This document shows, in pieces, positions 4,089 through 51,913 of a stretch of DNA of 64,000 nucleotides. The notes beneath the pieces were generated by a model, which had not been told where the DNA came from, ran no database searches, and worked only from the letters and a program-made list of their open reading frames with translations. Each line of letters opens with the position of its first letter. Position 1 is the stretch's first letter. This stretch comes from an uncultured delta proteobacterium. GTDB lineage: Bacteria > Desulfobacterota > Desulfobacteria > Desulfobacterales > UBA11574. The translations under genes and the position numbers were made by a program. The stretch covers positions 60,354 to 124,353 of the forward strand of contig CAVSVL010000016.1 in the NCBI GenBank assembly GCA_963731025.1, written 5' to 3'.

Positions 4089-4913
4089 TTATGGTTTTTC
4101 TTGGGATTTCGAAGTGTTTTTTATATACTCCGACAATATTTTTATGTATTCTTTTCTTACTTCTTCTTTTCCATATTTTCTTTCCAGTCGCCGAATAGTA
4201 AAATGCCCGCGCGCAACTTCCTGGAAATGATCAACAAACAAAAGATTGATAGTCGCGCCGCCAAGAGCGCCGATGACCGGTACACTCTGGACAAATACTT
4301 TTTCAGAAACGACTGTCCCAAAGCGAGACGCAAGCTGGGAGATCAATCTTGCAATAGGCGGAGCGCCACTTTCCGTCAGACCTCTTGCGGCAATATATTT
4401 GGCAGCATCGCTTACGGCTTTTGCCAGGACGGCGCGAACTGTGAAATACCCTGTTTCAGCTCCGTCATCTGTATCGGATTTTCCGCCAAAAGCAAAAACT
4501 TCGAGGCAGGCCAACCTTGATTGAAGTGTTGAAATATCCTCTCCTTCGCTTCGTGCGATATCGGCAATCGAACGTAAAATTATCGATGTCGATATCGGAA
4601 GTTCTATCGCGAGAGCAGGCAATCCAAAGGCGCCACCTAAAGCACCGCTTATACCGCTTGCAATTTTATGTGCAGTTGTTGATGCTGCGTGTTTTAACTC
4701 TTTGTCCATTGTTTTTACGGTGAGGGTCAATAGATTCTTTAAGGTAACCTTTACCGCATCTTGTATGTTTTGAGATGTCTTGACAGGCAGGTTATTAATA
4801 ATTTTTCCAACAGGTTTTTCTATATAGCTCGTAATTTTGGAAATGAAGCTGGGAAATTCGAGACGCACAACTGCTTGTTCAAGATCTTCATAATCTTTTC
4901 CTTCAATAGCCAT
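4089..4913 (-). CDS. EcsC-family protein
   Basis: 274 aa with GISGALGGAFGLPALAIELPISTSIILRSIADIARSEG, typical of the EcsC family. Confidence 0.55.
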   Translation of the reverse strand: MAIEGKDYEDLEQAVVRLEFPSFISKITSYIEKPVGKIINNLPVKTSQNIQDAVKVTLKNLLTLTVKTMDKELKHAASTTAHKIASGISGALGGAFGLPALAIELPISTSIILRSIADIARSEGEDISTLQSRLACLEVFAFGGKSDTDDGAETGYFTVRAVLAKAVSDAAKYIAARGLTESGAPPIARLISQLASRFGTVVSEKVFVQSVPVIGALGGATINLLFVDHFQEVARGHFTIRRLERKYGKEEVRKEYIKILSEYIKNTSKSQEKP

Positions 4914-5057: not shown

Positions 5058-5345
5058 TTATGGTTTTAACTTCAACGTGAGACCCGTAATATCTATTATC
5101 TCCGCCTTATCGCCAACTGTTAATGGAACATCACAAACAGCACTCCATAATTCTCCATTAACCAAAACTTGGCCTTCGGTTTTATTCCATCGTTTAATTT
5201 CGACAACTTTTCCAATCATGCCTGCCACACCGTAATTAGATTTTTTATTTCTGTCCTTAATAAACCAGATTAACGGAAGCACAACATGCTCAATAAGTTC
5301 AAAAGCAATAAAGGCGATTACCAATGCGATAATTACAATTTTCAC
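5058..5345 (-). CDS. NfeD-like membrane protein (C-terminal OB domain)
   Basis: N-terminal TM helix followed by GKVVEIK...GQVLVNGELWSA...GDKAEIIDITGLTLKLKP. Confidence 0.7.
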   Translation of the reverse strand: MKIVIIALVIAFIAFELIEHVVLPLIWFIKDRNKKSNYGVAGMIGKVVEIKRWNKTEGQVLVNGELWSAVCDVPLTVGDKAEIIDITGLTLKLKP

Positions 5346-5544
5346 CGAAGACTTCCTCAGGCAAGTCTTTTGAAGTATTGGTCAAGCATTTTATAAACTC
5401 CTGCTTGATAATCCTGTCTGTATCAAAGTTATAATCGAATAGACGTCACCAAGACCACACGTAAGACCACTAACCTTGAACCGTTAACCTATGAACCTTA
5501 GGTCTACCACATGTATTTTATACTTTAAAATCACTGATCAAAAA

Positions 5545-11277: not shown

Positions 11278-11979
11278 TTATTCCCCAAAATCTATTGATT
11301 CGGGTAATCCGTAGATCCGGGGATGATCCACAAGCAGGTAGAAAGCATTAAGACCACCGGCCAGTGTTTCATCCGCGCCATAAAGATAAGCGCCGTCTTC
11401 GCCCCTTTCATGTAGTTGCCGGACACGCGCTTTGGCACTTATGATCAGCTCGCTCACCGGTCCGAACCGGATCGAATCGGTCGGGCAGACCTGGGCGCAT
11501 GCGGGCTCCAGTCCCTCGCTGATCCGATCATAGCAGAGCGTGCATTTTCGGGCGATTTTCAGAGGAGGGATGAGATGAATCACTCCAAAAGGGCACGCAT
11601 CCACACACAGTTTCATCCCCTGGCACACGTCCGGCTGAATCACCACCGTATCGAATTCTGTGCGAACAATAGCACCTGTCGGACAAGCCTTTAGGCATGC
11701 AGCACGCACGCAATGTTTGCATACGTCACTCATCATGAGCCACCGGTTTTGGCGGCGGTCTTCACTGAATTGTTCGATGAATTTTACTTGGCGCCAGTGG
11801 GCGTTGTCCATCCGCCGGGTATTATCATAGCTGTCACCCGTCATTTCAGTGGTTCCATTGCCGCCCCCGCGAAGCCTGTTCCACTGTTTGCAGGCCACTT
11901 CGCAAGCCTTGCAGCCGATACAAACCGTCGTGTCTGTATAAAACCCCATGCGTTGTCGTGTCCGGCTTTGCGTCATCAT
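11278..11979 (-). CDS. fdhB: formate dehydrogenase iron-sulfur (beta) subunit
   Basis: Several CxxCxxCxxxCP 4Fe-4S motifs (CIGCKACEVAC...). Its ATG overlaps the fdhA stop (ATGA) and follows GGAGAAG. Confidence 0.8.
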   Translation of the reverse strand: MMTQSRTRQRMGFYTDTTVCIGCKACEVACKQWNRLRGGGNGTTEMTGDSYDNTRRMDNAHWRQVKFIEQFSEDRRQNRWLMMSDVCKHCVRAACLKACPTGAIVRTEFDTVVIQPDVCQGMKLCVDACPFGVIHLIPPLKIARKCTLCYDRISEGLEPACAQVCPTDSIRFGPVSELIISAKARVRQLHERGEDGAYLYGADETLAGGLNAFYLLVDHPRIYGLPESIDFGE

Positions 11980-14900
11980 ATCTTCTCCACATTGCACAGA
12001 AAGGCTTTGGCTTCGTGAATACTCACGTTGGGGTCGCCGACCATCGGCGTGAGTTCATTGACCACATCTCCCGTCACGAGTCCCTGCCAGCCCCAGTGCC
12101 AGGGCATACCCACCTGGTGTAACACTCTACCTCCGATCCTGAGAGGCCGCAAGCGGTATGTCACGAGCGCCCTGGCCCGGATCCGGCCCCTTGCCGTAAT
12201 GATTGCGACCCAGTCCTTACTCTGTATCTCCTTTTCCTTGGCGAGCTCGGGGCTCAGCTCTATAAACAGTTCGGGCATGAGCTCCGTGAGCCACGAATTC
12301 CATCGGCTCATGGCACCTGCGAGGTAATGCTCCGTGAGCCGATACGTCGTGATCACGTAAGGATAGCGATCGTCAAAGACAGCGGCGAGCAGGTTATCTT
12401 TTCGGTCCCAATACTTTAAAACAGGATTTGTCTGCTGCCCGTAGAAAGGGTTCTTTATTGGCGACTCCGCCGGCTCGTAGTGGGTCGGCAAAGGGCCGTC
12501 AACAAGACCGGCCGGAACAAAAAGCCATCCCACTCCGTCCGGCTTCATGATGAACGGGGCGCTGCCCGAATGGGCATCCATTCCCCTCCCCTCCGGATCT
12601 CCGGAAACTTCGGGTGGTTTGTCAACAGGAAAATCCGGAACGTCCATTCCTCTCCATTTTCCGTTTTCCCACCATACCCATTTCTTGCGTTCGCTCCAGG
12701 GGAGCCCTTTTGGATCCGCCGAAGCGCGGTTGTACAGAACCCTGCGGTTCGCCGGCCACGCCCATCCCCAGTTCAAGTGAGCGCCCATCATCCCGGGTGG
12801 ATCCGGTTCCCTTCGCTTGGCGAAATTCTTTTTCGGGGCTGGAAAGACGCCGCAGTAGATCCATGATGCGCAAGTTGTCGAGCCGTCGTCCTTCAATTCG
12901 CCGCTTCCCGTGAGGTGATGTTCCGGATTACCGGTATGATAGCCGTTGATTTCTTTGAGAATCTTCTCGGCATCCGGCTCTCCATCCACTTCAGGCGGTT
13001 CAATGGGCTCATAGCTCCAAACCAGGTTCCGGATCCCCTGGTCTTGAGGCCGGTTGCTGTCTTTGTACATTCTTTTCAGCCGCAGCCCGAGTTGATAGGT
13101 AAACCAAATATCCGAGCGGCATCGACCCGGCGGAGTCAGGGCCCTGGAATGCCACTGGAGCATGCGTTGGGTATTGGTGAAACTCCCCTCACACTCCGCC
13201 ACTTGCGACGTCGGAAAGAAAAACACCTCCGTCCGGATTTCCTCGGGTTTGATCTTACCTTTCATCACCTCCGGCGACTTGTTCCAGAAAGTCGCGGTCT
13301 CCGTGATGAAGTTGTCTTTGACCACCAGCCATTCAAGATTCTGCAGGCCTCTGCGCTGCAGGCTGGCGTTGATGGACGTCGCCGGATTCTGACCGATACA
13401 AAGCACTCCCTTCACTAGCCCTTCTCTCATGGCCACAAACATCGGCATGTGCGAGTGGTCACCGATGATCTTCGGATGCCAGTCATAGCCGAAGTCGTTC
13501 TCGGGCACAGCCATGTCTCCGTACATGGATTTAAAATAAGATACCAGAAACTTGGGCATGTTAACCCAATAACCCGTAACAGCCGTTTCCGAAGCCAGAT
13601 AGTCGTGCAGCGAGCCATGGTTCTTGAGGGCGGAGGGAGCCGGCATATATCCATGAATGCTGTGATACAGGGTTGGAATGTCGGTGGACCCCTGGATGGA
13701 AGCATGTCCCCGGAGCGCCAGCACACCGCCACCGGGACGTCCGATGTTGCCGAGAAGAAGCTGCAGCAACGCACAGCAGCCGATGATCTGCGGGCCGTAT
13801 GTGTGATGTGTCCATCCCACTGCGTAAGCCCAGGCCGTGGTCCGATCACGGCCCGAATTATCGAGAATACTGCGGGCTACCTCAAGAAAGGTCTCTCGGG
13901 GACATCCCGTGACCGTTTCTACCATCTCGGGAGTATAGCGGCGAAAGTGGCGTTTCACCACCTGGAAAACCGTACGCGGGTGTTGCAGTGTTTCATCCCG
14001 ATCAGCCGAAGCGTTACCTGTATTTTCACCGGTATCGTTGGGTGCGTATTGCCACGTGGACGTTTCATACTGGCAGGTGCTTCCGTTAAAAGGCCATTCA
14101 GTCTTTGCATCGGCGTGCTCCATCAAACCCGAGAAAAGGCCGTCCAGATCTTCGGTGTCTTTGAAGTCTTCCCGCAAAAGTGTCGCGGCATTTGTATAGT
14201 TTACCAGATACTCGCGAAAAAAAGGGTCCTTGTTCCAACGCTCATCATGGATCACAAAATGGATGAGCCCGCCCAAAAACGCAATGTCCGAACCGGAACG
14301 AAGGGGGGCGTAAATATCTGCCATTGCGCTCGTTCGGGTGAATCGAGGGTCTACATGGATGATCTTTGCGCCTTTCAGCTTGGCCTTCATGGGCCAGCGG
14401 AAGGCAACGGGATGACATTCGGCCATGTTGGAACCCTGGATAACGATGCAGTCCGAATACTCCAGGTTGCGGGGATAAAGGGTTGCGGCACCGCGCCCGA
14501 GACGCGTTCCCAGACCGGGAACACTGGAGCTGTGTCATATGCGGGCCTGGTTCTCAATGGCCACCACTCCCAGGCCTCGCATCAGTTTCTGTTGAAGGTG
14601 GTTCCATTCATTGTCCAGGGTCGCACCCCCGAGCGCAAAAATACCCAGCGTGTGGTTGACCGGAGAACCGTCCGAAAGACGCTCGACAAACGTCTCCTCA
14701 CGGGTCTTTGAAACCAGTTCGGCAACACGATCCATTGCCCATCCCAGCTCGACTTCCTTCCATTCCCGCGCTCCCGGACTCCTGTGAAGCACCCGGGTCT
14801 CACGGTTCGAATTGACATGAAGTTGGTAGATCGCCGCACCTTTCGGGCACAAAGCCCCCTCATTGTGAGGACTTTTCGGGTCTCCCTCGATGTTCACAAT

Positions 14901-15011
14901 CCTTCCGTTTTTGGTGTGGATGATGATGGCGCATCCCACCGAGCAGTAAGGGCATATGCTGGGCGTCACCGTCGCGCCTTTGGTGTGTATCTCTCCGATT
15001 TTCAAAACCAT
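11976..15011 (-). CDS. fdhA: formate dehydrogenase alpha subunit, selenocysteine-containing (TGA at 14537-14535 decoded as Sec)
   Basis: Track ORFs 14535-15038 and 11976-14426 are in the same frame. Read-through gives ENQARI-U-HSSSVPGLG, the canonical FDH Sec motif. N-terminal CPYCSVGC cluster. ATG at 15011 after GGGAGG. Confidence 0.9.
14506..14522 (-). promoter_or_regulatory. SECIS-like hairpin for fdhA
   Basis: On the mRNA, 12 nt after UGA: GUUCCC-GGUCU-GGGAAC (6-bp stem, GGUC-containing loop). Confidence 0.7.
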
Positions 15012-19262: not shown

Positions 19263-19410
19263 GAAATTCCTCCTTGCCTTAAGGTTTATCCAGCTTAACA
19301 GTTAGTGTCCATTCATGAATTCAAAATGAGCACTAGTTAATATTGAGCGTTAAACACTTTCCGAACGAACCTCCACTATTGCGATGTTAAGAACGTCCTC
19401 AAAGTCCCAC

Positions 19411-20109
19411 TCAGGCTGCTGTCGGGCCGTCGACTGGCGGTAGCATAATACGGGCGTCTGCCACAATGCATTTTTGCGCAGAACACATCACCGGGTTGAG
19501 ATCGATGGATTCGATCATGTCGGCGGCGGCCATGACGAATTTTGAAAAACAGACCAGGGTCCGGGTCAGCTCGTCGCGATTGACAGCCTGGTGACCCCGG
19601 TACCCGGAAAGTAAGGGAGCGGCCTTAAGACCCTCGATCATGGCATCCACATCCCTGGTTCCCACAGGGGCCAAACGCAAACTGACGTCCTGGTAGATTT
19701 CCACGCCGGTCCCGCCCATGCCCAATAGAACTACGGGCCCGAATTGATCATCTATTTTAGCACCGATAATCAACTCCAGGCCGGAAACCATTTGTTCGAT
19801 CAACATGGCCTCGAAGCCGTCCAATAGGCTGAAGGTTTCAAATACGGCCGTCAGTTCCCGGATGCTCTTGATGCCTGTGCGCACACCGCCGACATCCGAC
19901 TTGTGGACAATGCGACTGGAAACGACCTTGGCAGCCAGGGGAAACCCCAGGTCGGCAACAATCGGTTCGATCTGGTCGGGGTTCGTGACAGTTACAAAAC
20001 GCGGCACCTCCAGCCCTGCCGCGGACAGCAATCGTTTGGCGTCCGGTTCGCTCACCCAGCCGCGGGTGCGGGCTTTTTCCAATACGGTCTTGATTTCGGT
20101 TTTCAGCAT
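19411..20109 (-). CDS. ADP-forming acetyl-CoA synthetase, ATP-grasp (beta) subunit
   Basis: LLSAAGLEVPRF...GFPLAAKVVS..IVHKSDVGGV...GPVVLLGMGG...IESIDLNP. Confidence 0.8.
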   Translation of the reverse strand: MLKTEIKTVLEKARTRGWVSEPDAKRLLSAAGLEVPRFVTVTNPDQIEPIVADLGFPLAAKVVSSRIVHKSDVGGVRTGIKSIRELTAVFETFSLLDGFEAMLIEQMVSGLELIIGAKIDDQFGPVVLLGMGGTGVEIYQDVSLRLAPVGTRDVDAMIEGLKAAPLLSGYRGHQAVNRDELTRTLVCFSKFVMAAADMIESIDLNPVMCSAQKCIVADARIMLPPVDGPTAA

Positions 20110-22712: not shown

Positions 22713-23162
22713 TTGCCTTCCAGGTCCGGGCTTGAAAAAGCAGCCGGAGATTTGCGTGAATGGAAAGTAGAAACAAGCTGTTCGGGGTTGTGGGACATAC
22801 CTCCGTTGATGATGACAGCCACCCTTGACGATGGCCTGGGCCATGGACTTGAAGTTATCCGGTTGTTTTCTGAAGCAGCGGGTCTTGAGATCATTGAACT
22901 CGGGCTTCTTGTGACGCCTGAAAAAATCATCACCGCATGTAAAAAATACAAACCTGATTTATTAGGATTAACCGTACTCCAGTTTGATTCAGAGGAAAAC
23001 ATTTTAATGATAAGCAAAAACCTCCCGGAACGAACAAAAATAATTGCAGGGGGACCGGTTTTTACGGGAGATCGTGAATTTGCCCGGCGGGCAGGCATCC
23101 ATTTCGCAGCAAAGAATGTCGCCTATTTTATCCAATTTCTGCTTCAGGTTAAAGAGGAGTAA
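22713..23162 (+). CDS. cobalamin (B12)-binding domain protein
   Basis: MMTATLDDGLGHGLEVI...KPDLLGLTVLQ...IIAGGPVF, a Rossmann-like B12-binding pattern. TTG start is uncertain. Confidence 0.6.
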   Translation: MPSRSGLEKAAGDLREWKVETSCSGLWDIPPLMMTATLDDGLGHGLEVIRLFSEAAGLEIIELGLLVTPEKIITACKKYKPDLLGLTVLQFDSEENILMISKNLPERTKIIAGGPVFTGDREFARRAGIHFAAKNVAYFIQFLLQVKEE

Positions 23163-23181
23163 CCTGTACCTATCTTAACCT

Positions 23182-23343
23182 TTTCAAAAATTTGAAACGC
23201 TCAGCTTCGGTTATATGGAAAAGACGTCTAAATCTTAAACAGCTCTTTTTGACCCCCAAAAGGCAGGTTTAAGAGCGTTTCAAGCCTATTTTTTAACCTC
23301 TTTGTCAATTATTATATATGGTTACCGTGGTCCGACCCCAGCT
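23182..23343. repeat. ~160-bp dispersed element, family 3 (ends ...GTTACCGTGGTCCGACCCCAGC)
   Basis: Near-identical to 33541-33665. The 5' module TTCAAAAATTTGAAACGCTCAG also occurs at 10178 and 36918. Internal IR TTGAAACGCTC / GAGCGTTTCAA. Confidence 0.7.
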
Positions 23344-23358
23344 CTGGAAATATATTTA

Positions 23359-23580
23359 TCATCTGGCTATCGCATTCATATAACACTCCAAATGTTTCTG
23401 CCACTTTGTAACTTTTTCATCTTCATCCATCTTCTCAAAGAAGTCCCGCTTTTCATCTATTTCCATATCTCGAATCTCAGCAAAGGTGCATTTTTTACGT
23501 TTACCCTTGTACGGGCAGTCTTTAAAAACATTTAACAGTTTGTCATCAAGATCTTTAGTGGTCATAAGAAACCGTGTCAC
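23359..23580 (-). CDS. small hypothetical protein
   Basis: 73-aa charged ORF abutting the antiporter stop. Confidence 0.4.
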   Translation of the reverse strand: MTRFLMTTKDLDDKLLNVFKDCPYKGKRKKCTFAEIRDMEIDEKRDFFEKMDEDEKVTKWQKHLECYMNAIAR

Positions 23581-24788
23581 TCCCCTTTAATACCGAGCTT
23601 GAGCATAAGCGGTTTCATGGTGATTCCTTGCACAACTAACGAGAAGAATACACAACCAAACCCTGCCAGCAACAACACCGGACGCCACCTTACCAGTAAA
23701 CCTTCATTGGGTAGATTAAGCAGCAAAGCAATCGGTATCGAGCCCCTCAAACCTCCCCAGAATAGAATGTGGTTCCATCTCTTCGGTCGCTTAGTACCTA
23801 CCTGATTTAGCAACCAGTAGAAACTGTAAGAAACCGCTGCGCGTGCTATCAGCATCGCAGCAATGGCAACAAACACCGTCATCCACATAATATTTGCCGG
23901 CACTTCGCGTAGCTCCAGGCCGATCAAGACAAACAGGAGCGAATTGATCAAAAAACCTATGGATTCAAAAAATATTTCAACCGTATTCGTCGTCTTTTCA
24001 CTCATCGAGAGTCTCCGGCCAAAATTACCTATCATCAATCCGGCCATCACGGTTCCAATTACCCCGGAAAGGTGTATTACTTCCGCCAACCAGAATGACC
24101 CGTAAGCCAAAACAAGACAAAGCGCATTTTCCAGCAGATGATCCTCTATATGACGCATGATCTTAAAAACGATCCAGCCGAGTACTGCCCCCAAGAGTAG
24201 CCCCCCGACGGAAACCTTTACAAATTCATATGCTGCCTGGGCAAATCCAATTTCTTGCCCACTCAGCACGGCCTTGAGCAGGATCGTGAACAACACGACT
24301 CCGGTTGCATCATTAAAGAGCGACTCTCCTTCCACTATTGTCTTTAGATCTTTAGGTGCCCCCACCTCCTTGAACAACGAGAGAACACTCACAGGATCTG
24401 TTGGAGATATCAAGGCACCAAAAAGTATCGCCACCATCATTGAACTGATACCACCCAACCATCCGACAAGTCCTCCCACTAACAGGGTTGATACAATAAC
24501 GCCCGGCACTGCCAAACACACAATCGGCCAAAACTGCTCCAAAAGATCGTTTAGGTTCATGTGAAACGCTCCCTGGAAAAGCAACGGTGGCAAAAAAACA
24601 AAAAATATTAGATGATACCCAAATCCAGTCTTCTCAATTTCCGGGCCAATACCCAGGACACCTATCAACAGTCCTACCAGAGTCAGAAATATCGTATACG
24701 GTAAATGCGTTACCATCTTACTGACAATCGCCACCGCACATGCCAGTAACAACAGCCCGATATATATTCCAACCGCATGCTCGATCAT
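23577..24788 (-). CDS. Na+/H+ antiporter (CPA1/NhaP-type)
   Basis: About 11 TM helices, ...ISPTDPVSV..., ESLFNDATGVV. Start trimmed to MIEHAVGIY. Confidence 0.8.
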   Translation of the reverse strand: MIEHAVGIYIGLLLLACAVAIVSKMVTHLPYTIFLTLVGLLIGVLGIGPEIEKTGFGYHLIFFVFLPPLLFQGAFHMNLNDLLEQFWPIVCLAVPGVIVSTLLVGGLVGWLGGISSMMVAILFGALISPTDPVSVLSLFKEVGAPKDLKTIVEGESLFNDATGVVLFTILLKAVLSGQEIGFAQAAYEFVKVSVGGLLLGAVLGWIVFKIMRHIEDHLLENALCLVLAYGSFWLAEVIHLSGVIGTVMAGLMIGNFGRRLSMSEKTTNTVEIFFESIGFLINSLLFVLIGLELREVPANIMWMTVFVAIAAMLIARAAVSYSFYWLLNQVGTKRPKRWNHILFWGGLRGSIPIALLLNLPNEGLLVRWRPVLLLAGFGCVFFSLVVQGITMKPLMLKLGIKGE

Positions 24789-24960
24789 CTTGATAATCCC
24801 CGCTTTATTTCTTTTCTTCAACGCAAGGCAATAGAGGCAATACGATCTGATGCATCTCGCTATTGCCGCCAGACCGGCATCTCCAGCCACTGCAAAAATC
24901 GATCTTATTACAGATATCGCTTAAAGGCCTTTGTCAAGTCAAGCAAATCTTAATTCTTTC

Positions 24961-25183: not shown

Positions 25184-26269
25184 ATGAAACTCAAAATCAG
25201 ACCTTATCTTTATACCGGGAAAACGATACCGTTAACTGTCTTTTTTCTTTTCTTTATTGCCATTAATACAGGATGTACAGGCCATAATGACGATCTTCCA
25301 AAAAGTGGTGGAATAAAGTTTGTCAGCGATCAGGCAGCGCTCCTCTCAAAAGCCGAGAAAGACCATATTACACAGCTCACCAGTGCTCTCTTAAAGGATA
25401 TGGATATCCATATCATGGCTGTTGTGCTGAAAGAAAGTCCGAAAGATATTGATCAAAAAGCGGTTAAACTTTTTCAAGAATATGGCGTAGGCCGTACAAC
25501 CAATGGCGCTAAAGGCGTTCTTTTTCTCATAGACCCTCTTGGGAAACAAGTCAGGATTGAAATCGGATACGATCTTGAACCCATATTCACGGACAGCTTT
25601 ACAGGATATATTGAAAGAAGACAGATGACGCCGTTTTTTCAGGCCAATAAAGTGGGGCCGGGGATCGAGGCCACTGTTGAACTTTTGGTCGGAAAGGCAC
25701 TTGGAAAAATAGAAACCTTGAATTACACTGATCCGGAAAGCAAGCAGCAGACCGGTCAATTTCTATCTGGAGGAGGAGGTTCTCGATTAGATGTGGAAAT
25801 CGGTTCAAGGAACATTGAAAAAAAGGTTTCTTCTCTGGCAAACAAATATCAAGCCCAGCCATCGGTACATGATACGCTTGATAAATATATTGAAGTACTG
25901 CAGCTGCATGTCAAAGATCCCAACCTTGGCATTTATACTCCCGAAACAAGAAAGTTTTTTAGCAGCTGGGTGGTGACCGACGCCCAACAGGACAATGAGC
26001 TTCAAGTCATAAATCGTGCGATGCCCACTGCTGATATTTTTACCAAAGACAATTTGGCTGTCGTAATGTTTGCTCCTGATCTTCGTCAGGCATCGCCGTT
26101 TTTTCTTGAAAAGGGCGGCCGGGGATGGATGTTGGATTTTGCTTCAATGAGTAAACTTATTGGGTTCAATCATAAAAATCAATGGCACTTGCGGCGAAGA
26201 AACCACAAATATATGTTTGGGCTTAAAGGAGTTAGTTTTGATAAAAATGGTTTTCCACATAAAAAATAA
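25184..26269 (+). CDS. TPM-domain (TLP18.3/Psb32-like) protein with signal/TM
   Basis: FVSDQAALLSKAEKDHI...IHIMAVVL...GVLFLIDPLGKQVRIEIGYDLEP. Confidence 0.7.
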   Translation: MKLKIRPYLYTGKTIPLTVFFLFFIAINTGCTGHNDDLPKSGGIKFVSDQAALLSKAEKDHITQLTSALLKDMDIHIMAVVLKESPKDIDQKAVKLFQEYGVGRTTNGAKGVLFLIDPLGKQVRIEIGYDLEPIFTDSFTGYIERRQMTPFFQANKVGPGIEATVELLVGKALGKIETLNYTDPESKQQTGQFLSGGGGSRLDVEIGSRNIEKKVSSLANKYQAQPSVHDTLDKYIEVLQLHVKDPNLGIYTPETRKFFSSWVVTDAQQDNELQVINRAMPTADIFTKDNLAVVMFAPDLRQASPFFLEKGGRGWMLDFASMSKLIGFNHKNQWHLRRRNHKYMFGLKGVSFDKNGFPHKK

Positions 26270-26294
26270 ACTTAAAATGTTAAGTGCGTCCCCC
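26265..26294 (+). repeat. REP-like element, family 1
   Basis: AATAAACTTAAAATGTTAAGTGCGTCCCCC. Confidence 0.65.
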
Positions 26295-26451
26295 ACTTTC
26301 CTTGAAATTTTCAACCTAAAAAATAATGGGAGAACCGGGGAGTTTTAAAGGTTGAATGAAACGTGTCCATTGACAGCCCGGCTCGCCTATGGCAAGGTAA
26401 TCTCAACCTAACCTTTCAATTTATTTTATGGGTTTTTCATAGGAGGTTGAG

Positions 26452-26826: not shown

Positions 26827-27006
26827 TCACCCATGCACAATTTTTTTCAGGTTGTCAAGACAAGAGCACAGAACGACGTCTAAAATCATTCCATTTTTTT
26901 CAAATCTGTCTCTTGCTTTCTGGTCAGGAAGAAGTTTTTTGAGGTCAATTTCGCACAGGAGTTTTATCGAATCTTTTTGTTGATAAGAAAGAATGAACCT
27001 TGTCAT
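26827..27006 (-). CDS. small hypothetical protein (59 aa, below ORF-track cutoff)
   Basis: MTRFILSYQQKDSIKLLCEIDLKKLL... Its ATG overlaps the stop of the upstream MerB-like gene (ATGA). The first ~25 codons are repeated at 47256-47335. Confidence 0.45.
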   Translation of the reverse strand: MTRFILSYQQKDSIKLLCEIDLKKLLPDQKARDRFEKNGMILDVVLCSCLDNLKKIVHG

Positions 27007-27467
27007 CGGACCGGCCAGACCTCGCCGATAGGTGCATACCCCATTATACCTTCCGGTTCAGCATTCTGGATTGCACCGTTCTTCATTTTAACTGTTATGG
27101 ACGAACCGCAATCCAGACAGGGAGCATCAACCTGTATTGTTTTATCTGGAAAAAGCCAGCTGACCGCCAGCGATTCGAATCCTCATTGGGCGAACCACTT
27201 CTGTTGGCCATCGATAGTTATGCGATATTGGGTGGGAAGACTGCTGAACGGTGGAAACGAACAAATGTAGTCGGTTTTTGGGAACAACCAGCCGGGGAAA
27301 CCGGGTGAATAAAGCTCATGCAAGGCTTTTCGCCCTTCCTCTAACGGCACATCCATTTCGGCTGCAATTTCTGTGTAGTGTGGCGCCTGACCTGTTTCCA
27401 TCATGCGTTTCATGATGATTTGAAAAATTTTGTCTAAAGGATCAAGGTTTGACCCCACTCCTCTCAT
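27003..27467 (-). CDS. MerB-like (alkylmercury lyase family) protein, candidate selenoprotein (TGA at 27185-27183)
   Basis: Track ORF ends ...QQKWFAQ at a TGA, and the same frame continues GFESLAVSWLFPDKTIQVDAPCLDCGSSITV...EPEGIMG to the TGA at 27005-27003. FAQ-U-GFESL aligns with MerB YAW-C96-ALDTL. The start codon is uncertain. Confidence 0.55.
27159..27171 (-). promoter_or_regulatory. candidate SECIS-like hairpin
   Basis: On the mRNA, 11 nt after UGA: GCUG-GCGGU-CAGC. Spacing and GGU loop resemble the fdhA hairpin. Confidence 0.4.
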
Positions 27468-28692
27468 TTTCTGCCCGTTCGGCGAATACCCGGAAACGGC
27501 GTGCTTCTTCCTCATTTCCCATCGAGGCATATATTCGGCTGATCTTCTGAAAATATAACGGAGCATTTTCCGGATCATCCTGTGCCAGGGAAAGATACAT
27601 TTCCATAATCGCTGAAGAATGCTGGCCTAAATCAAAGCTGATATCTGCGAATCTTCGTTTGATCAGAGGATCGATGCGGCTATGACAGCTGCGGCACTGA
27701 TTCATGATTTCGGCATACAGATCCCGGGCGTTTTCAAGGTCTCCCAATGTCTCCAATGTGCCGGCAAGCGCAATCGATAGTGATTCGTTCCATCCGTAGG
27801 CCTCCATGAAATCCTGATAGCAAGAGGCGGCTTCCGGATGGCGCCCGGCCTGAGACAGGGTTTCGCCTCGGAGCAGGACATAGGCCAAAGAGTGTTTAAG
27901 GTCATCCGGGCAATCGGCAAGAAGGGTTTCAGCCTGATCAAAGGCCCCTATTTCCCAGTAAACCTCACAAAGCACCTGATAACCCGGCAGGGCATCCGGA
28001 TGATGTTGGAGAAAGGTCTCCAGCAGACGGCGGGCTTCATCCAATTTCTTCAGGTTCAGGTAGGCCGTGGCCAGCTCAAGGGGAATCATTGAATCCGGGG
28101 CAGCGTTCTCCTCCAAGGCCTGAGACAGGTCATCGGCTGCAAGGTCAAAGTCTCCCCGGTTCAGCGCGAGATAACCGGTTTTAAAGGACCGCCCATAGGA
28201 AAGGTAGGCCTCCTGAACCTCTTCGGGCAGTGTACTGCAGAGTGCCATAAAAGTCTCTTCATCCTGATCGCCGGAGTATGTCTCGTCATCGGCGAGGGGA
28301 GTCTGGTCAGATTGGGGCACTTCCATTTGAATATCTCCGGCTGTGAGGCGTGCAATCTCATGCATAAGCTTTTCAACAGCGGATATCAATGCAGGGTCCC
28401 GGGTCAAGTCGAGGGCCAATTGAAGAAATCCCTGCGCTTCATCGTAATATTCGGTCTCCATCAAATCTTCACCGGCCTGCCTGTGTTCAAGTGCCAGGGC
28501 CTCTTTGGCCTGAACCAGTTTATCCCGAAGCCTTGTTTCTGAAGCATCATCAGACGATGTTTTTTCCAATGCGTCCAGGGCCTTTTCGAATTCAAGCTTT
28601 GCCCTGCCCCAATCGGAGGCCTTTAAAAAAGCATCACCCTTCTGTTCGATCTTTTCAGGATCTTGACTGAAAAATTTTTTGAGAAGCCCCAT
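27442..28692 (-). CDS. tetratricopeptide-repeat protein
   Basis: 416 aa, repeated A/Y/L-rich TPR-like helices. Confidence 0.7.
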   Translation of the reverse strand: MGLLKKFFSQDPEKIEQKGDAFLKASDWGRAKLEFEKALDALEKTSSDDASETRLRDKLVQAKEALALEHRQAGEDLMETEYYDEAQGFLQLALDLTRDPALISAVEKLMHEIARLTAGDIQMEVPQSDQTPLADDETYSGDQDEETFMALCSTLPEEVQEAYLSYGRSFKTGYLALNRGDFDLAADDLSQALEENAAPDSMIPLELATAYLNLKKLDEARRLLETFLQHHPDALPGYQVLCEVYWEIGAFDQAETLLADCPDDLKHSLAYVLLRGETLSQAGRHPEAASCYQDFMEAYGWNESLSIALAGTLETLGDLENARDLYAEIMNQCRSCHSRIDPLIKRRFADISFDLGQHSSAIMEMYLSLAQDDPENAPLYFQKISRIYASMGNEEEARRFRVFAERAENERSGVKP

Positions 28693-29374: not shown

Positions 29375-29468
29375 TCCATCTCCCGGCTTTTAGAATGCGT
29401 GCTGTGTTTTATATTTCTTCTTGTCGGGCCGAAGCTTTCAGCAAAGGCTGATAATCACTATAAAGGAA

Positions 29469-29498
29469 AATAAACTTAAAATGTTAAGTACGTCCCGC
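29469..29498 (+). repeat. REP-like element, family 1
   Basis: AATAAACTTAAAATGTTAAGTACGTCCCGC. Confidence 0.65.
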
Positions 29499-29515
29499 AA
29501 TTCCCATGTCGGTCT

Positions 29516-31507: not shown

Positions 31508-31705
31508 TTCATTTCCTGAAAAATAGTATTAAAAATCTTATGTGCATCACCGTAGCGCTTCGCGAATCCCTTACATCGAAGGCTGACTTGTCCCGTCGTC
31601 TTGTCGGGTCGTAGCTCGCAGATCGAAGCCGGACTTGTCCTGCCGTAGCGCACAGAGCGAAGCAGGAAGCTCACGGAGCGAAGACTGATAATAAAGGATC
31701 AAGAA

Positions 31706-31737
31706 AATAAATTTAAAATGTTAAGTATGTTCGTCCC
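31706..31737 (+). repeat. REP-like element, family 1
   Basis: AATAAATTTAAAATGTTAAGTATGTTCGTCCC. Confidence 0.6.
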
Positions 31738-31745
31738 TAAAGTCC

Positions 31746-50771: not shown

Positions 50772-51668
50772 TCAATCCTTTGCTTTTGGCTCAACATCAC
50801 GGCATTTTCGTTCCAGTTGATGAATAATTCTTGAGATCATTTGGTCAGATAAATTTATGCCGCCTTTTGTTTTGGCGATGGATCGAAAGTTCTTGGGATT
50901 AATAACAGGAATGCCGCCGGAAGCAACTCTTTTTACAAACCATCCCGGCAGGGCAACAACCGGCCGAACCCTGATGGCCTCACCCACTGCTTTTTGCAAC
51001 CATTTTGACAGCCATTCCGCCTGCCTTTTGGCCTGTTCGATGGATTTAACGTCCATACCATTCGAAAATTGAAGACGCGTGCCGTCGTAATTAACCTTAG
51101 CATCTGCCTTTCGATCTTTTGAAGTTGGTTTTGATCGCGCTTTTGTTTCAACAGCAAATACACCCGAAGCGCCGACGACAATGTGATCGATATTGAACTT
51201 CCCTGCGGGAAAATCATGGTAGACACGGTATCCTTCCAGCATGAGCTGATTGAGCTCCTGGCCAACGGCAATTTCACCCTCGTAACCCAGCTGATAAGAC
51301 CGTCGCAGGTTCAATGATTTGACTAAATTAAAAAGAAAATAGGCGATAGAACCTATTCCAGCAATGATGTAAAAGGCAGTTGTAAATGTTGAAAGTTTTG
51401 AATTGCCGAAATGTAATAAAGATATATAAGTGGCATAAAAGAATATCGGCAATGTGATGAGTAAAAGAAGATTTTCAGTTAACCTATCATTGATTTCCAT
51501 AATTTTTCTGTTAAGGGATTCTCCCGGGCTTCTTAAAAAATTGTCGGTAAATGGTGATCGATATCTTTTTATCTGGCGATATTTCCGCAGCAGGTAGAGC
51601 ACTGAAGCAAAGATCGCATAGATTCCAAAAATCAGGATTACTGGGAAATATTTGAGTATCATGTTCAA
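50772..51668 (-). CDS. NERD-domain (nuclease-related) membrane protein
   Basis: 3 N-terminal TM helices. GYEGEIAVGQELNQL..GYRVYHDF...IDHIVVGASGVFAVETK. Confidence 0.75.
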   Translation of the reverse strand: MNMILKYFPVILIFGIYAIFASVLYLLRKYRQIKRYRSPFTDNFLRSPGESLNRKIMEINDRLTENLLLLITLPIFFYATYISLLHFGNSKLSTFTTAFYIIAGIGSIAYFLFNLVKSLNLRRSYQLGYEGEIAVGQELNQLMLEGYRVYHDFPAGKFNIDHIVVGASGVFAVETKARSKPTSKDRKADAKVNYDGTRLQFSNGMDVKSIEQAKRQAEWLSKWLQKAVGEAIRVRPVVALPGWFVKRVASGGIPVINPKNFRSIAKTKGGINLSDQMISRIIHQLERKCRDVEPKAKD

Positions 51669-51691
51669 GGCCTTCTCCTTCTTATATTTTT

Positions 51692-51787: not shown

Positions 51788-51913
51788 TCAATCTCCCAGA
51801 TCTTAAAATGCTTGCTGTATTTTATCTTTATTCTTGTCGAGCCGAAGCTTTCAGCAAAGGCTGATAATCAAGGATGAAGGTTTGAACCCAATCACTTCGT
51901 TTTTATCTCAAGA

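Follow-up and report, generated by a model that had tools for sequence, protein, structure and literature searches.

The locus studied here is a MerB-like reading frame with an in-frame UGA, found on the minus strand of a 64-kb stretch of DNA (64,000 nucleotides, hereafter the window) from contig CAVSVL010000016.1 of an uncultured delta proteobacterium of the Desulfobacterales. It occupies positions 27003..27467 and is probably a truncated copy of a longer gene. The read-through frame comprises 154 codons plus a stop: it starts at an ATG at 27467, passes the in-frame TGA at 27185-27183 and ends at a terminal TGA at 27005-27003, with the translation MRGVGSNLDPLDK...DGQQKWFAQ*GFESLAVSWLFPDKTIQVDAPCLDCGSSITVKMKNGAIQNAEPEGIMGYAPIGEVWPVR*. 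The segment from the ATG to the first TGA is MRGVGSNLDPLDKIFQIIMKRMMETGQAPHYTEIAAEMDVPLEEGRKALHELYSPGFPGWLFPKTDYICSFPPFSSLPTQYRITIDGQQKWFAQ, and 59 sense codons (GFESLAVSWLFPDK...GYAPIGEVWPVR) follow before the terminal TGA. This agrees with a preliminary description of the locus made from the DNA alone, in which a TGA after DGQQKWFAQ and a frame open for 59 more codons had been noted.

When the TGA was read through, the product matched the Pfam family MerB (PF03243) with an E-value of 5e-12 and a score of 46.3 bits (cut-off 27). The match covered residues 56-123, on both sides of the UGA, while the 76-residue product ending at the TGA had no Pfam match. The MerB homology of the frame is therefore visible only on read-through, and by the PF03243 threshold the stretch 27003-27467, so read, is assigned to the MerB superfamily. 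Among the NCBIfam models, that of SaoL scored highest (46.9 bits; cut-off 140). A phmmer search of the short window product against the PDB returned MerB at E 0.6-1.5, too weak to use.

Three features of the frame correspond to positions of known importance in MerB. The UGA (27183..27185, minus strand) falls in the column of MerB Cys96 and is read as selenocysteine (Sec), on the comparison of TGA and Cys codons among relatives and on a HMMER alignment to PDB MerB, both given below; the placement on Cys96 given in the preliminary description was right. Three codons further on, a GAA (Glu, 27174..27176, minus) aligns with the proton donor Asp99. A CLDC motif (27108..27119, minus), invariant in the family described below, has its first Cys in the MerB Cys117 column. 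All family-invariant residues up to Tyr144 are present in the window copy. The TPR gene immediately upstream ends in an ordinary TGA stop (27444-27442), and genome-wide recoding is therefore not the explanation for the in-frame TGA.

A MerB-like family with two in-frame UGA codons

A protein search retrieved 2270 relatives in two length classes. Those of about 155 residues carried Cys in the first column (WFAQ-C-GFE), and those of about 232 residues carried an apparent Trp there. The DNA of two of the longer proteins was checked, and the 'Trp' proved to be an in-frame TGA called with genetic code 4. The same artefact was seen in P0001-P0015, P0017, P0019-P0021, P0024, P0025 and others (214-238 residues, on short contigs), which have Trp at both Sec columns; translation with table 11 does not reproduce the Trp of these 214-238-residue database proteins.

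Codons were counted directly in genomic DNA. A scan of one genome per species yielded 276 relatives, and in the best 80 of these loci, nearly all from metagenome-assembled genomes of Desulfobacterota, the codons at sites 1 and 2 were TGA/TGA in 78, TGC/TGA in one and TGC/TGC in one. A metagenome scan added 80 further loci, in 77 of which the first column was readable, and it was TGA in all 77. The site 1 column thus holds TGA in about 130 distinct relatives, and protein conservation extends to either side of it; the distinct sequences available numbered 131 at site 1 and 120 at site 2. Cys (TGC or TGT) was found at site 1 in L003, L006, L020, L051, L167, L168 and L169, and at site 2 in L020 and P0060/L167, both of them Cys/Cys members in the form of one fused protein of about 235 residues. 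The homologues of the window frame accordingly have either TGA or Cys at the UGA column, followed by a conserved downstream frame, and the earlier proposal that the UGA is a Sec codon is upheld. On this evidence, the UGA at 27185-27183 is predicted to encode selenocysteine in the Cys96 column.

The intact family gene has about 232 codons. Its first UGA is followed by Gly-Phe-Glu, and in every complete relative a second TGA lies 64 codons past the first (65 in one locus), after which the frame runs on for 75-80 conserved residues (STMNLFRSEEH[IV]RNW...). The Sec-spanning peptides encoded by the intact gene would be ..WFAQ-U-GFESLAVSWLFPGK and ..LPYA-U-STMNLFR. Public annotation cuts these two-Sec genes into pieces of 93, 155 and 75 residues: the 155-residue database proteins end at the second TGA, and a separate 'gene' of 68-77 residues begins six bases on in the same frame.

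Four GenBank entries of 155-156 residues from Dehalococcoidia and Rokuibacteriota are named 'organomercurial lyase' (MGI8553513.1, MGI8971681.1, HZQ37779.1 and MGH7323260.1, in the clusters of P0052, P0053 and P0109), with their C-terminal pieces listed as separate hypothetical proteins. The members of this length class that were checked (L003, L006, L168 and L169) end at an in-frame TGA, and the conserved C-terminal domain comes next in frame. Judged from these loci, the first column of the 155-156-residue forms is probably Cys and the second Sec.

In a HMMER alignment of a full-length member with PDB MerB (1S6L/3F0P), the first and second U fell on Cys96 and Cys159, respectively, and the Glu on Asp99. 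The alignment covers MerB residues 79-203 at about 17% identity. An AlphaFold2 model of the Cys/Cys member P0060 (pLDDT 93.2, pTM 0.88) gave significant matches in the PDB only to MerB structures (top 11 all MerB; E ~1e-9, TM 0.55-0.66). The comparative data point to a MerB-like family with predicted Sec at both catalytic cysteine positions, which is widespread in sulfate reducers and unannotated.

SECIS-type hairpins downstream of the UGA codons

A hairpin of the selenocysteine insertion sequence (SECIS) type begins 11 nucleotides past the UGA of the window, at 27155..27171 (minus strand). It has a stem of six base pairs (27171-27166 / 27160-27155, GCUGGC/GCUGGC, with two G-U pairs) and the loop GGUCA (27165-27161), and it is the same as the family consensus. 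The preliminary description had drawn a hairpin here as GCUG-GCGGU-CAGC (27171-27159), 11 nucleotides past the UGA. A conserved hairpin does lie at that distance, but its stem is not the one proposed: the four-base-pair GCUG/CAGC stem is 86% paired, with its U-A pair broken in 63 of the 131 distinct homologous sequences, whereas 99.2% of cells are paired over the six pairs of GCUGGC/GCUGGC. An additional lower stem, between the GG of a Gly codon and the CC of a Pro codon, was rejected, as it is broken by Ala (GCN) variants.

This first hairpin is too conserved to display two-sided covariation, and its 3' arm is partly set by a Trp codon; the argument for it therefore rests on synonymous-site constraint. 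Its Ser codon was TCG in 113 of 114 sequences (background 0.20) and its Leu codon CTG in 116 of 127 (background 0.29), with nine CTA variants that preserve the pair. Val was encoded solely by GTC or GTT, and Ser/Cys solely by AGC or TGC. The codons flanking the hairpin vary like the background, so that synonymous fixation is confined to the hairpins. One locus, L133, has both a Leu to Ser and a Trp to Arg replacement within the hairpin and keeps all six pairs.

The second hairpin, CUCUUCC-GGUC-GGAAGAG, lies 3' of the second TGA of the intact genes, where it encodes LFRSEE. It was paired in 98.3% of cells, with eight compensatory changes from C-G to U-A, a result matched by none of 500 shuffles. 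Its codons were CTC in 110 of 113 sequences, TTC in 124 of 124, CGG in 121 of 122 (Arg, background 0.22) and TCG in 121 of 121. Both hairpins begin 11-12 nucleotides past their UGA and have GGUC in the apical loop. The first was lost in both Cys/Cys members (P0060/L167 and L020), and the second was lost as well in L020.

A recognised type of bacterial selenoprotein gene is present in the same window. A formate dehydrogenase alpha-like gene (14504-15011, minus strand) contains a UGA (14537-14535) in ..IENQARI-U-HSSSVPG.., so that the genome has an fdhA whose in-frame UGA lies at the usual Sec motif of formate dehydrogenases (..ARI-U-HSSSV..). The Sec codon and its SECIS hairpin span 14504..14537 (minus); the hairpin itself, GUGUUCCC GGUCU GGGAACGC, lies at 14524-14504 and has eight base pairs. 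Downstream of this UGA, an ORF at 11976..14426 has Pfam Molybdopterin and Molydop_binding matches. The formate dehydrogenase SECIS of the Escherichia coli fdhF type is an established bacterial SECIS. The family hairpins are like it, and like the fdhA hairpin of the window, in starting 10-12 nucleotides past the UGA, in having GGUC in the apical loop, and in the position of the G-U, about 22-25 nucleotides from the U of the UGA. They are unlike the fdhF type in that the stems are short (6 and 7 base pairs) and no bulged U is evident. The likeness to the fdhA hairpin on which the preliminary description had relied, with the loop GGUCU at a similar distance from the UGA, was thus borne out.

Some of the results at this site count against reading the UGA as Sec. 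The hairpin of the window sequence alone folds no better than shuffles (z = 0.87), and two-sided covariation is absent from it, as described above. ARAGORN found no tRNA in the 64-kb window, and hence no tRNA-Sec. A consensus scan also labelled the hairpin with the UUUUU that follows it as terminator-like. These data might suggest that translation simply ends at the TGA, as a regular stop codon or one arisen by nonsense mutation, and that the hairpin is a chance structure or an intrinsic terminator. We regard this explanation as highly improbable, as about 130 distinct sequences share the TGA and have conserved protein on either side of it, Cys counterparts exist, the Pfam MerB match is obtained only across the TGA, and homologues do not preserve the U-run (CUGUUUCC, CUUUACCC). 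The use of TGA as a normal stop in the window, at the end of the TPR gene, also speaks against it. Rfam at its gathering threshold gave no match in the window, and none for the fdhA SECIS either, and is hence uninformative on this point.

Probable truncation of the window copy

The sole stretch of the window homologous to intact family genes is 27033..27437 (minus strand), corresponding to codons ~11-144 of ~232. Over these positions the nucleotide identity is 97.8% to L087, the closest relative, and 94-96% to L088, L089 and L091. The L087 gene has the full architecture (TGA, 64 codons, TGA, 76 codons), and the NhaP gene of L087 is 96.6% identical to window positions 23577-24850. As both its MerB-like gene and its NhaP gene are nearly identical to those of the window, L087 is taken to be from the same or a sister species.

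In DNA alignments, the homology to the relatives stops abruptly at both ends. On the 3' side it ends past the Tyr codon of GIMGY, at about 27033 (codon 144), and on the 5' side it ends upstream of codon ~9-11, at about 27440. At the 5' breakpoint, where a G-rich Shine-Dalgarno sequence and an ATG are found in the relatives, the TPR gene comes to its end in the window, and both the Shine-Dalgarno and the native start are absent. The first residues of the window frame, MRGVGSNLDP (27438..27467, minus), are non-homologous and overlap the 3' end of the TPR gene (27442..28692, minus). This gene ends exactly at the 5' homology breakpoint and shares 26 nucleotides with the MerB-like frame. From the 3' breakpoint the alignments leave a non-homologous tail, APIGEVWPVR plus the terminal TGA (27003..27035, minus). 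Because the homology ends at the breakpoints, this tail is regarded as junction sequence. No hairpin follows the terminal TGA and nothing like the second family hairpin was seen there, and a tblastn search for the C-terminal domain across the 64 kb did not find it.

Two other readings of the 3' end were tried and rejected. The terminal TGA (27005-27003) was considered as a second Sec codon, the tail being loosely like the Dehalococcoidia-type ..PIGGPPEGRPFR-U; the homology ends 28 nucleotides earlier, and neither a hairpin nor a C-terminal domain comes after it. The ORF at 27006..26827 was considered as a frameshifted C-terminal domain and had no similarity to it. This ORF (59 codons, 26827-27006, minus, MTRFILSYQQ...) overlaps the terminal TGA as ATGA, is AT-rich (38% GC) and lies between convergent genes; it is probably not a gene.

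The preliminary description had regarded the frame as a short MerB-like form. This was not supported, as every complete close relative has the second TGA, in the Cys159 column, and the C-terminal domain of 75-80 residues. The window copy ends at the equivalent of MerB residue ~140, and so is without the C-terminal part of the fold after Cys159; of the catalytic trio it has the predicted Sec and the Glu, and the third position is deleted. A rearrangement would have replaced the native start and, at the other end, the 20 codons leading up to the second Sec together with all that follows them, and would have left the first UGA and its SECIS intact. If translated from the ATG at 27467, the remnant would give a product of 154 residues with Sec95, without the second catalytic residue and about 40% of the fold, and for this reason it is most likely a pseudogene. 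We consider it likely that what remains in the window is an internal piece of a truncated gene of the two-Sec family, the intact enzyme being MerB-like; the copy is most likely the remnant of a rearrangement, and most likely a recently created pseudogene.

The state of the remaining codons is less easily fitted to a dead gene. Over codons 11-144, the window and L087 differ by seven synonymous changes and one non-synonymous change, the latter specific to L087. The substitutions specific to the window are three synonymous and none non-synonymous, there is no internal lesion, and an in-frame ATG is available for the remnant. The absence of window-specific lesions fits a very recent truncation, and it is also in keeping with continued selection on the short product. 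As continued selection is compatible with synonymous-only changes, a functional short form keeps some weight: a genuine selenoprotein of 154 residues (Sec95, Glu98 and CLDC) might work without the Cys159 region, for example in metal binding or sensing. Its frame is intact, its SECIS is that of the family, and the invariant residues are retained to Tyr144. We nevertheless think it unlikely. Its architecture occurs in none of about 160 related loci, its tail and N-terminus are non-homologous junction sequence, its native start and Shine-Dalgarno are gone, with the new start inside the TPR gene, and among the elements it lacks are the second catalytic residue and, from a MerB fold predicted with confidence, strand 159-162 and the helices of the C-terminus.

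The surroundings of the copy differ strongly from those of the related loci. In the window its neighbours are the TPR protein, a cupin, a TPM-domain protein and NhaP, and synteny with related loci was limited to NhaP in L087. In L087 the intact gene has NhaP 0.5 kb upstream, but in the window NhaP is on the other side of the remnant, 2.1 kb downstream (window 23085-24890, L087 1251-2691). The genes that adjoin the L091 copy have counterparts scattered over the window, at 19387-19806, 50786-51688 and 5099-5386. A dispersed intergenic repeat of about 40-60 nucleotides, with the core AAAATAAACTTAAAATGTTAAGT.CGTCCC, was present in the window at 26263-26304, 29467-29508, 31704-31745 and 51831-51893, and in L087 at 1073-1137, 2698-2760 and 4428-4489, where copies flank the intact MerB-like gene. 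This repeat may be linked to the rearrangements. An IS110-family transposase (Pfam DEDD_Tnp_IS110 and Transposase_20) lies at 45575-46861 on the plus strand.

An island of 405 nucleotides of homology amid unrelated sequence, with very different neighbours in L087 and L091 and a shifted NhaP, might also reflect an assembly artefact, with a chimeric contig built around a piece of about 400 nucleotides and the gene itself intact in the source genome. This explanation appears improbable: two breakpoints within 440 nucleotides, with no repeat shared with the flanks, would be unusual for an assembly chimera, and the dispersed repeats and the IS110 transposase of the region are consistent with a real rearrangement. 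Other apparently decayed natural copies were also observed, with a frameshift past the first UGA in L111 (3277-3460), a TAA within the C-terminal domain in L107 (~3560), and a deletion across part of the second hairpin and about 14 codons in L073 (4932-4991).

Predicted activity and relation to MerB and SaoL

In MerB, two thiolates bind the mercury and Asp99 protonates the leaving carbon. A similar action is proposed for the intact two-Sec enzyme because of its sequence homology, its predicted MerB fold and the presence of Sec, Sec and Glu in the three catalytic columns. Each UGA would be decoded through its own downstream hairpin by the bacterial SelB/SECIS mechanism. Two selenolates would then act as ligands of the metal in an organometallic substrate, with the carboxylate of the Glu in the Asp99 column protonating the carbon, so that the carbon-metal bond is cleaved with selenolates in place of thiolates. 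By this analogy, the predicted substrate is an organomercurial or another organometal.

With a little less than even confidence, we propose that this is an undescribed MerB-fold family, widespread in Desulfobacterota and other anaerobes, in which both metal-binding cysteines are replaced by Sec, each with its own SECIS, in a stand-alone gene (at least 78 species-level genomes among the best 80), and that it could be the missing organometal lyase of the sulfate reducers, for example in mer-independent methylmercury degradation. If so, a double-Sec MerB homologue is common among the bacteria chiefly responsible for mercury methylation in sediments, and there is a concrete candidate for anaerobic, mer-independent organometal cleavage. 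The counting of merB-like genes in environmental mercury surveys would also change, as the pieces are now named 'organomercurial lyase' (155 residues) or 'hypothetical protein', and gene calls with genetic code 4 conceal such genes by writing Trp for Sec. The natural series of Sec/Sec, Cys/Sec and Cys/Cys members could serve to probe the contribution of selenium to carbon-metal bond protonolysis. The window copy is of lesser importance, as the remnant that led to the family.

Like MerB of the mer operon (PDB 3F0P and 1S6L; PF03243), the two-Sec family passes the Pfam threshold, matches the catalytic columns and has a predicted fold that matches only MerB. It differs from MerB proper in having Sec (or Cys), Glu and Sec (or Cys) at Cys96, Asp99 and Cys159, and in scoring only 20-33 bits with the NCBIfam models NF033555 and NF009710, for which the cut-offs are 193-200. 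The mer operon context (merR, merT, merP and merA) was not found around the window copy, and a clustering of ORFs within ~4.5 kb at 77 loci, in search of a conserved operon partner, gave no conserved neighbour. The commonest cluster occurred at only 8 of these 77 loci, and the Pfam families of the neighbours at L002, L003, L006 and L167-L169 indicated unrelated genes. As it has no conserved neighbours, the two-Sec gene is placed outside both the mer operon and the SAO locus of SaoL.

SaoL is a MerB-like organometallic lyase selenoprotein (NCBIfam NF040728, reference WP_238493467.1) in which Cys occupies the Cys96 column and the Sec of a CU dipeptide the Cys159 column. It is the marker of a nine-gene locus in about 50 anaerobes, with the ABC transporter SaoABP, SaoE, SaoC, SaoT and SaoD in its neighbourhood (Haft & Gwadz 2023, bioRxiv 10.1101/2022.07.06.499078). 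No MerB homologue with Sec in the Cys96 column was found described in the literature searched, where SaoL was the sole MerB-like selenoprotein found; a prior description may nevertheless exist. The question raised in the preliminary description, whether a Sec-containing MerB-like family had been catalogued, is thus answered in part, since SaoL is catalogued but has Cys and not Sec in the Cys96 column.

The nine-gene SAO neighbourhood was not encountered at the two-Sec loci, which had nothing in common at more than 8 of 77. The two-Sec family also differs from SaoL in its scores with NF040728 (46.9, 48.5 and 45.3 bits against the cut-off of 140), in having Sec at the Cys96 column in the Desulfobacterota forms and most members retrieved, and in having A/R/S-U-S/A at the second site and not C-U. 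Both are MerB homologues of anaerobes with Sec in the Cys159 column, and the database entries of both end at the UGA. They share the motifs C-x-x-C-G and U-x-x-M-N-[LF]-F, and 27% identity was found over 132 residues with the SaoL reference (Cys99 in the Cys96 column; ..FCAMCAVD.. and ..ASCUNIMNFF..), with both catalytic columns aligned. Judged by these alignments and model scores, the two-Sec family is related to SaoL and is not a member of it. The MerB-like selenoproteins have so far comprised only SaoL, with one Sec beside a Cys, and the family described here would add a form in which Sec is predicted at both metal-binding positions.

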